Of a stretch of 64,000 nt of DNA, positions 58,253 to 58,527 are shown piece after piece. Numbering within the stretch: the first letter of the stretch is position 1; the number at the start of each line of letters is the position of its first letter. Below the pieces are notes generated by a model. It ran no database searches. It saw nothing but the letters and a program-made list of their open reading frames with translations, and was not told the origin of the DNA. Origin of the DNA: Escherichia coli (GTDB lineage Bacteria; Pseudomonadota; Gammaproteobacteria; Enterobacterales; Enterobacteriaceae); the NCBI RefSeq assembly GCF_003334335.1, contig NZ_QOWQ01000024.1; one strand, given 5' to 3'. Position numbers and translations under genes: made by a program.

Positions 58253-58313
58253 ATCGCAGATAGCAAAAAAGCGCCTTTAGGGCGCTTTTTTACATTGGTG
58301 GGTCGTGCAGGAT
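58253..58313 (-). repeat. distal copy of a 61-nt direct repeat: terminator hairpin plus orphan 18-nt 3' end of tRNA-Lys
   Basis: Identical to 58409-58469 except one mismatch (58264 vs 58420); not followed by the rest of a tRNA. Confidence 0.85.
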
Positions 58314-58408
58314 GACTCGCTTCGCTCGCCCTTCGGGCCGTCGCCGCGAGCGGCTCCGTTGTTTCGCTGCGCTCAACTCAAACCTGCTGCAGGTTCGAAT
58401 CTTTGAGT
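58314..58408. other. 95-nt GC-rich structured insert between the two repeat copies
   Basis: Nested inverted repeats (cgctcg..cgagcg around ccc-ttc-ggg; actcaaa..tttgagt) and a T-arm-like motif gcaggttcgaatc in opposite orientation to the neighbouring tRNAs. Confidence 0.6.
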
Positions 58409-58451
58409 ATCGCAGATAGTAAAAAAGCGCCTTTAGGGCGCTTTTTTACAT
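58409..58451 (-). terminator. intrinsic (bidirectional-looking) terminator immediately 3' of tRNA-Lys; part of proximal repeat copy
   Basis: gcgcc-tttag-ggcgc hairpin flanked by A6 and T6 runs. Confidence 0.8.
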
Positions 58452-58527
58452 TGGTGGGTCGTGCAGGATTCGAACCTGCGACCAATTGATTAAAAGTCAA
58501 CTGCTCTACCAACTGAGCTAACGACCC
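58452..58527 (-). tRNA. lysV: tRNA-Lys (anticodon UUU)
   Basis: Reverse complement GGGTCGTTAGCTCAGTTGGTAGAGCAGTTGACTTTTAATCAATTGGTCGCAGGTTCGAATCCTGCACGACCCACCA. Confidence 0.97.

Follow-up and report, generated by a model that had tools for sequence, protein, structure and literature searches.

The DNA analysed here, a stretch of 64,000 nucleotides from an Escherichia coli contig (NZ_QOWQ01000024.1, assembly GCF_003334335.1) that is referred to below as the window, contains the locus gltX - valU operon - lysV - xapR, as recognized in a search of 5426 complete E. coli genomes. Within the window, the valU-type operon possesses a single Val gene according to ARAGORN, and lysV is its last gene (Table 1). 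A promoter-like site was found 18 nt upstream of the mature 5' end of tRNA-Val. The transcription start of the valU operon has been mapped 9 nt upstream of valU (PMC4176162), and a promoter at this site would fit that start. On the other side of the locus, xapR is convergent to the tRNA operon and its stop codon ends at position 58187; the lysV-xapR spacer measures 264 nt both here and in MG1655. Over the 199 nt that follow lysV, the sequence agrees with that of E. coli K-12 MG1655 at every base (100% identity).

Table 1. Features of the valU-lysV operon and its 3' region in the window (TLR, tRNA-linked repeat).
Feature	Position	Strand	Basis
Promoter-like site TTGACT-16-TATAAT of the tRNA operon	58625-58652	-	Consensus scan, 11/12 matches
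tRNA-Val(UAC)	58532-58607	-	ARAGORN; Rfam tRNA 65.9 bits
tRNA-Lys(UUU), lysV, last gene of the operon	58452-58527	-	ARAGORN; Rfam tRNA 79.2 bits; counterpart of MG1655 lysV
lysV-side repeat copy: last 18 nt of lysV and 43-nt trailer	58409-58469	-	Repeat search
Terminator 1, GC hairpin between A6/T6 runs	58419-58449	-	Inverted-repeat search
Rfam RtT (RF00391) match, the TLR unit as marked by PGAP	58296-58421	-	47.3 bits
Inverted (antisense) copy of the lysV T-arm	58389-58401	-	13/13 complementary; RNA strand reads GAUUCGAACCUGC
Sense T-arm 5' half, GCAGG + TTTGA	58378-58387	-	T-stem 5' strand and first half of the T-loop
GC-rich TLR core, 64 nt	58314-58377	-	Aligned with 29 other TLRs
Orphan tRNA-Lys end, nucleotides 59-76	58296-58313	-	Exact match to 58452-58469
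xapR-side repeat copy: orphan 18 nt and second 43-nt trailer	58253-58313	-	Repeat search
Terminator 2, duplicate hairpin facing convergent xapR	58263-58293	-	Inverted-repeat search

Two 61-nt direct repeats downstream of lysV had been reported in a preliminary description of this DNA, and they proved to be real. The two copies are 98% identical and lie 156 nt apart from start to start; their lone mismatch is a C/T difference at repeat position 12, and no 61-mer match arose in 100 dinucleotide-preserving shuffles of the window. As that description had stated, the last 18 nt of lysV recur exactly (18/18) in the xapR-side copy without a tRNA body, and each repeat contains a hairpin terminator, AAAAAAGCGCC-N5-GGCGCTTTTTT. 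The orphan tRNA end comprises the 3' end of the T-loop, the 3' strands of the T-stem and the acceptor stem, and ACCA. A simple consensus terminator scan reported neither AAAAAAGCGCC/GGCGCTTTTTT hairpin, probably because the flanking A/T runs were counted as stem, and the hairpin calls are based on the inverted-repeat output and published probing. The hairpin adjoining lysV has been probed experimentally and is the valU operon's Rho-independent terminator; a terminator probe detects the full-length operon transcript of ~438 nt in MG1655-derived strains, and RNase P cuts off the terminator 2-3 nt past the CCA of lysV (PMC4176162). The length of this transcript indicates that transcription ends at terminator 1, which should be able to act in both directions because A6/T6 runs flank its hairpin. 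Whatever lies behind this working terminator, including the body of the unit described below, would therefore be transcribed by read-through only.

Read along the minus strand, lysV is followed by the 43-nt trailer, a 21-nt segment, GCAGG + TTTGA, a 64-nt core, ATCCTGCACGACCCACCA, and the 43-nt trailer with its terminator once more. The 95-nt insert between the repeats (58314-58408) is GC-rich, as described previously (62% GC vs 52.6% for the window). The T-arm-like motif that had been noticed on the opposite strand, GCAGGTTCGAATC, is complementary at 13 of 13 positions to the lysV T-arm (58467-58479); this antisense copy lies within the 21-nt segment after the lysV-side trailer and, in the predicted folds, pairs with the next segment as a hairpin. 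The sense half of a T-arm that forms the left flank of the core goes beyond the preliminary description. Its TTTGA corresponds to TTCGA in other copies, and the other E. coli units read GCAGGTTCGAG. The core itself consists of a small hairpin (GAGCGCAGCGA), hairpin A (GCCG-CUCG-CGGC with a tandem G.A), CCC-GAA-GGG, and hairpin B (GC-GAA-GC in the window copy). On the other side of the core, ATCCTGCACGACCCACCA represents nucleotides 59-76 of tRNA-Lys. Thus, the upstream GCAGGTTTGA and the 18-nt orphan end constitute the two halves of a tRNA-Lys T-arm, the orphan being the right half together with the acceptor end. The structured core of 64 nt separates nucleotides 58 and 59 of this T-arm. The most fitting reading of the unit is a tRNA-Lys gene copy that carried the core insertion and has since decayed.

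This arrangement corresponds to a repeat family that has been described in E. coli. TLRs lie inside tRNA or rRNA operons and were first seen in 1978; K-12 has 22 of them, distributed over 10 loci, and they are recognized by a 3' end of 18-19 bp that is the same as the 3' end of the upstream tRNA or rRNA (PMC8144298). The lysV feature starts 43 nt after the last gene of its operon, on the same strand, and its 3' end is that of lysV at all 18 positions. Alignments with other TLRs, namely those at tyrT, in the lysT operon and at lysQ in MG1655 as well as 29 from other genera, showed its homology to the family. A search of Rfam, which the preliminary description had proposed, yielded an RtT (RF00391) match on the minus strand above the gathering score, albeit marginally (47.3 bits vs 45, +2.3 bits), covering model positions 1-130 of 130 with E = 7e-8 locally and 5e-6 over the whole window. 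The fit to the model is incomplete. Its outer stem is broken, and seven pairs are non-canonical (six in the outer and the next stem, one in hairpin A); the inner hairpins of the RtT consensus structure are kept, but hairpin A holds the tandem G.A and hairpin B is shortened. At the same place, NCBI PGAP annotates an 'RtT sRNA' in E. coli genomes such as J53, and the MG1655 record itself has no RtT feature annotated at lysV. We therefore assign the feature, with a probability of about 0.9, to one 156-nt TLR (Rfam RtT) unit at the 3' end of the valU-lysV operon, in the state found in MG1655. The lysV feature is accordingly already known, as a member of a long-known family that is annotated by PGAP and as the K-12 reference state. 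For the window it matters little, being a catalogued, strain-variable repeat of the best-studied bacterial genome.

The lysV unit was compared with the other TLRs of K-12. In MG1655, Rfam RtT units were found at tyrT-tyrV (four, 133-138 bits), in the lysT-operon spacers (four, 54-60 bits) and at lysQ (one, 46.7 bits). The rtT RNA/rttR units, 178-bp repeats after tyrT-tyrV, are said to have been the first TLRs, reportedly described by Egan and Landy in 1978 and by Bosl and Kersten in 1991. The lysV unit shares with them a homologous core (GAGCG.AGCGAGA, hairpin A, CCCGAAGGGCGA, hairpin B and GAGT[A/C]ATCC), the ending in the last 18-19 nt of the upstream tRNA, and the tandem arrangement in the 3' region of an operon. 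However, the tyrT units score 133-138 bits in Rfam and the lysV unit 47; the tyrT units keep an outer stem, GGGGAAGGAU/AUCCUUCCCC, derived from an antisense tRNA 3' end, which is degenerate in the lysV unit. Moreover, the lysV unit carries a copy of the intrinsic terminator and so lies behind a terminator, whereas the tyrT units lie inside the transcript. The lysT-operon spacers and the lysQ-nadA module end in the same 18-nt tRNA-Lys end as the lysV unit, and the 3' half of the core is nearly identical in the lysV, lysT-operon and lysQ units (GC[A/G]ACGGCCCG[A/T]AGGGCGAGCGAAGCGAGTC). The lysQ-nadA module is near-identical to that of lysV across all 199 nt, the dual terminator included. In contrast, neither the T-arm hairpin nor the GAGCG.AGCGA motif is present in the four internal lysT-operon spacers, which begin with an antisense GTG[A/T]AGGAT and lie between tRNA genes inside the transcript.

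The number of units at lysV varies among E. coli strains. With a query composed of Val-Lys and the unit, at least one unit after lysV was counted at ≥80% coverage in 2307 of the 5426 complete genomes, the remaining genomes covering all of the query but the 95-nt insert; ~57% are thus without a unit there. When lysV and lysQ were considered together, 3018 of the 5426 genomes carried at least one unit, and this subtype is absent in ~44%. The latter count stems from a core-61 nt-core query aimed at two-unit genomes, for which BLAST joined the pieces of one-unit genomes to 100% coverage, so that 3018 represents the genomes with at least one unit at either locus; two-unit alleles are known from examples only (L003, L009, H37, H101, H112, H114 and H115). 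The preliminary description had allowed that the arrangement might simply be the universal, reference-annotated state of the locus. It is the K-12 reference state and is PGAP-annotated in J53, but it is not universal. At lysV, no unit is present in strain 158, a single one in the window and in K-12, and two in strain GPEC1189. These alleles differ by exact steps of 156 nt, and the empty allele keeps one 61-nt module; the G variant (TTTTTTGCTATC) of the xapR-side copy is the version present in alleles without the unit.

Alleles with zero, one and two units likewise occur at lysQ. The lysQ units start with CTGCGAT, which is the native flank in the empty lysV allele and is absent from the empty lysQ locus of E. 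coli B. Because this lysV flank travels with the lysQ unit, we infer that the latter was copied from lysV; the transfer could have occurred by gene conversion through the shared tRNA-Lys and terminator homology. The exact register, the tandem multiples and the transfer between loci argue for homologous recombination or slippage rather than site-specific integration, and the allele structure suggests that the unit number may rise or fall when the 61-nt and 156-nt direct repeats undergo unequal homologous recombination, or when replication slips from one repeat to the other. Similar arrangements were found in related genera. In Enterobacter cloacae, two such units with the same terminator stand behind a Val-Val-Val-Lys operon, and in Klebsiella, Citrobacter and Leclercia Lys TLR units are followed by the same or a very similar terminator, indicating that the arrangement predates E. 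coli.

The preliminary description had suggested three explanations for the duplicated tRNA end. Two of them, that the terminator module had been duplicated in tandem around a small repeat element and that the sequence is a short structured RNA, came close: the feature is one 156-nt unit of a tandem repeat, and it belongs to the structured TLR/RtT family. The remaining one, an integrase footprint, was not supported. According to this explanation, the 61-nt repeats would be attL and attR, and the 95 nt would be what an island left behind on its excision or deletion. The T-loop is where one class of tRNA-targeting integrases crosses over, and the tRNA 3' end within the direct repeats does start there; moreover, E. 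coli W lacks the neighbouring xapABR cluster, and the break falls at the outer edge of the distal module. The lysV feature also resembles the att-site duplications that island and prophage integrases reportedly leave at tRNA genes (Williams, 2002), in that a direct repeat of the tRNA 3' end from the T-loop onwards has a complete tRNA on one side and an orphan on the other. Nevertheless, the repeat runs 43 nt beyond the CCA and takes in the terminator, and the alleles with zero, one or two units at lysV and lysQ are tandem and in exact register, in contrast to such duplications. The T-loop is split rather than duplicated, TTTGA on the left and ATCC on the right each occurring once and together giving one T-loop. 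In addition, the core is homologous to TLR cores located by Tyr, Arg, Ser, Gln, Pro and Asp tRNAs, each of which ends in the 3' end of its own tRNA, and 95 nt is too short for an integrase gene or its remnant. The comparison of strains that had been proposed showed zero, one or two module-units at lysV, and no island or integrase gene was found between the repeats among the lysV loci inspected. We therefore consider an integrase scar very improbable; duplication of a tRNA 3' end next to the gene need not mark an integration event.

The unit might alternatively encode a small Arg-rich 'protamine-like' peptide, as tpr does within the tyrT repeats. In question is an ORF of 28 amino acids with a TTG start on the minus strand (58290-58376; (M)SAAKQRSRSRRRPEGRAKRVILHDPPM), and it has the motif RRPEGR, in the same frame, in common with the annotated K-12 tpr product MRSFDQGSTRAPARERCRRQRPEGRSAQR. 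However, RRPEGR is the translation of the conserved nucleotide core CGGCCCGAAGGGCG, the TTG start has at best a weak AGG upstream, and the substitutions between species preserve base pairs, not codons. The frame is broken or startless in most K-12 TLRs, including two of the three tyrV units and all four lysT-operon spacers, and this candidate was rejected; a Tpr-like gene is scarcely credible here.

Returning to the TLR unit, we assessed its structure. The preliminary hairpins are present in the minimum-energy fold, but the long-range CGCUCG/CGAGCG stem among them is not conserved in other TLRs. The fold of the 199-nt region is far more stable than those of shuffles (z = -6.5), the two terminators accounting for most of this, and the 115-nt body alone is modestly better than shuffles (z = -1.99). 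Because the terminators dominate the fold, folding energy was not used as evidence of a structured RNA, and covariation was used instead. In 30 TLRs from ~20 taxa, a five-helix structure (the split T-stem, the small hairpin, hairpin A, CCC-GAA-GGG and hairpin B) had standard pairs in 94.3% of the paired cells, as compared with 81.4% in shuffles and 26-40% when the 3' partner was slid. Changes on both sides were observed in 13 of the 21 pairs, with compensatory changes in hairpins A and B, and RNAalifold independently predicted hairpin A and the T-stem, not hairpin B. The CCC/GGG helix was fixed by the search pattern, and the T-stem is biased, as units were kept when they had at least four of the five T-stem pairs and both of its sides are tRNA-derived anyway. 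The unbiased evidence of structural constraint comes from hairpins A and B only. The covariation of these two hairpins indicates that the core was structurally constrained at some time, which sits uneasily with pure junk.

Another possibility is that the unit gives rise to a functional small RNA. In that case, read-through of terminator 1 would produce a trans-acting TLR RNA of ~150 nt, matured at its tRNA-like 3' end, and the dual-terminator layout would meter this RNA after the model of RrA/RrB/RrF. The layout is the same as that of rrB, with a TLR between two terminators and an 18-nt repeat of a stable-RNA 3' end ~150 nt away (156 here), as is also the case for rrA and rrF (rrnA, rrnB and rrnD; PMC8144298). 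At rrnB, where rrB lies between T1 and T2, T1 read-through accounts for ~13% of transcripts (PMC8144298). Both the compensatory changes in the core hairpins across genera and the conservation of the arrangement in Enterobacter, Klebsiella, Citrobacter and Leclercia are in keeping with a small RNA. Unlike the lysV unit, however, rrA/rrB/rrF repeat the 3' end of 5S rRNA and have been observed as RNAs, with binding to both Hfq and CsrA in vitro, whereas tRNA-operon TLRs are predicted CsrA non-binders (19 of 19 below 0.01), have no known function, and had a claimed rtT phenotype retracted (PMC8144298). The two terminators at lysV differ from those at rrA/rrB/rrF in being duplicates of each other. 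Furthermore, the ~438-nt valU transcript stops at terminator 1, larger bands being ascribed to the lysT cluster (PMC4176162), and the unit is missing at lysV in ~57% of the complete E. coli genomes and its subtype in ~44%. On balance, we regard a functional read-through RNA as improbable. The absence of the TLR unit from many strains and its placement behind a terminator suggest that it has no required function in E. coli. At most, it might add a further bidirectional terminator that separates the strongly transcribed tRNA operon from convergent xapR. Terminator 2 could halt any read-through transcription, and the resulting RNA could be processed at its tRNA-like ...ACCA terminus.

To our knowledge, no function or origin has been accepted for the wider TLR family since 1978, and the split T-arm bears on its origin. 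An exact-pattern scan of species-representative genomes (CCCGAAGGGCGA-N5-16-GAGTNATCC) gave at least 158 matches at at least 120 loci. Among the matches listed, 81 had a same-strand upstream tRNA that shares its last 15-19 nt with the TLR end, the shared end being 18 nt in 51 and 19 nt in 27 (78/81 in total). The same junction occurred, among the matches listed, beside 13 tRNA isoacceptors, and the linked tRNAs were those for Lys, Tyr, Arg, Ser, Gln, Asp and Pro. The linked units among these matches have tRNA-specific sequence on both flanks of the core and a commonest insert length of 64 nt, and in the 89 linked units listed the shared 3' end measures 18 or 19 nt. In 71 of these 89, agreement with the cognate tRNA continues for 7 nt or more to the left of the left junction.

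The most complete copies were found in Photorhabdus, where the whole 5' part of tRNA-Lys precedes the core. In P. caribbeanensis, two intact tRNA-Lys genes are followed by at least 14 tandem units of ~175 nt, each unit being a full-length, mutating tRNA-Lys copy with 64 nt inserted between TTCGA of the T-loop and ATCC. When the insert was removed in silico, 29 of the 115 units from other species among the matches listed gave a complete tRNA in ARAGORN; nearly all of these came from Photorhabdus tRNA-Lys arrays, together with one Rhodanobacteraceae tRNA-Tyr. The copy in the window matches the Photorhabdus pattern, consisting of GCAGG + TTTGA, the 64-nt core and ATCCTGCACGACCCACCA. One tentative explanation, which we consider possible though rather doubtful, is that the core is a present or past non-autonomous element that would insert in the tRNA T-loop at 58|59 (TTCGA|ATCC), the TLRs being decayed disrupted copies. 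The tRNAs restored in silico, the shared junction, the tRNA-specific flanks, the covariation in the core and the dispersed core copies mentioned below would all be compatible with such an element. The full-length interrupted copies could instead be secondary chimeras that arose when a TLR recombined with a tRNA gene through the conserved T-loop.

The split T-arm and the interrupted tRNA-Lys arrays of Photorhabdus provide a concrete origin hypothesis that is testable by comparative genomics, and this split-T-arm model for the whole TLR family is the only part of the present analysis that is possibly new. It may already be present in the older literature (Rudd, 1999; Egan and Landy, 1978); a literature search on T-loop insertion, RttR and lysV with xapR yielded nothing useful. 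The same core also occurs away from tRNAs, in dispersed repeats of ~110 nt that lie below the Rfam RtT threshold and were found in several gammaproteobacterial metagenome-assembled genomes.

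Similarity between the window and E. coli W (L130) ends at ~58250, where the distal 61-nt module has its outer edge; this module is the repeat copy on the xapR side that carries the orphan 18 nt of tRNA-Lys and the second terminator. In E. coli W, the xapABR cluster is missing, and a FlxA-like gene and yfeR come after the tRNA-linked repeat (TLR; Rfam RtT, RF00391). Given this absence and the loss of similarity at the module edge, the xap cluster is a variable segment adjoining the TLR of lysV, the tRNA-Lys(UUU) gene.

The tRNA operon of the window contains only one tRNA-Val gene between the leader and lysV (58532-58680). 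The same operon has three Val genes in MG1655 (valU, valX and valY) and two in strain J53; among 5426 complete E. coli genomes, no more than 26 share the contiguous leader-Val-Lys arrangement of the window, for example strain 118UI. Two explanations fit the single Val gene: identical Val genes recombined in a rare deletion event, or the repeat was collapsed in the assembly.

In the spacer between lysQ, another tRNA-Lys gene, and nadA, an indel of ~30 nt located 3' of the lysQ TLR separates MG1655 from strain M1 (L007 versus L004) and includes GCATCCTGCAC, a further piece similar to the tRNA-Lys 3' end. Klebsiella sp. BIGb0407 (L023, 1-1700) carries two Val-Lys tRNA clusters back to back, with one RtT unit after the first and three after the second, each with its own terminator copy; from this layout, the entire operon appears to have been duplicated together with its TLR array.

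Outside E. coli, Photorhabdus caribbeanensis (L015, 5200-8100) has two intact tRNA-Lys genes and, after them, a tandem array of at least 14 units of ~175 nt, each a mutating full-length tRNA-Lys copy with the 64-nt TLR core inside its T-loop. The Photorhabdus units score 80-89 bits as RtT, and L021, L031, L032, L112, L113 and L120 are further loci of this kind. One unit from a non-Enterobacterales genome, a Rhodanobacteraceae bin (L073, ~4377, minus orientation), likewise yielded a complete tRNA (Tyr, GTA) on in silico removal of the insert between TTCGA and ATCC.

Gammaproteobacterial metagenome-assembled genomes (L061-L068, L070-L072, L010-L013 and L104-L107) contain dispersed repeats of ~110 nt that share the TLR core motif (GG CCCGAAGGGCGAG hairpin CGAGTAATCC) but do not adjoin tRNAs. 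These repeats, which start with CGTCATTCCGGCG.AGGCCGGACTGCG and are present in many copies per genome, score below the Rfam RtT threshold.

Two other Rfam matches in the window, each above its own gathering score
Feature	Position	Strand	Score (bits)
naRNA4	18301-18382	+	71.8
ES036/CssrF	41169-41211	-	40.9
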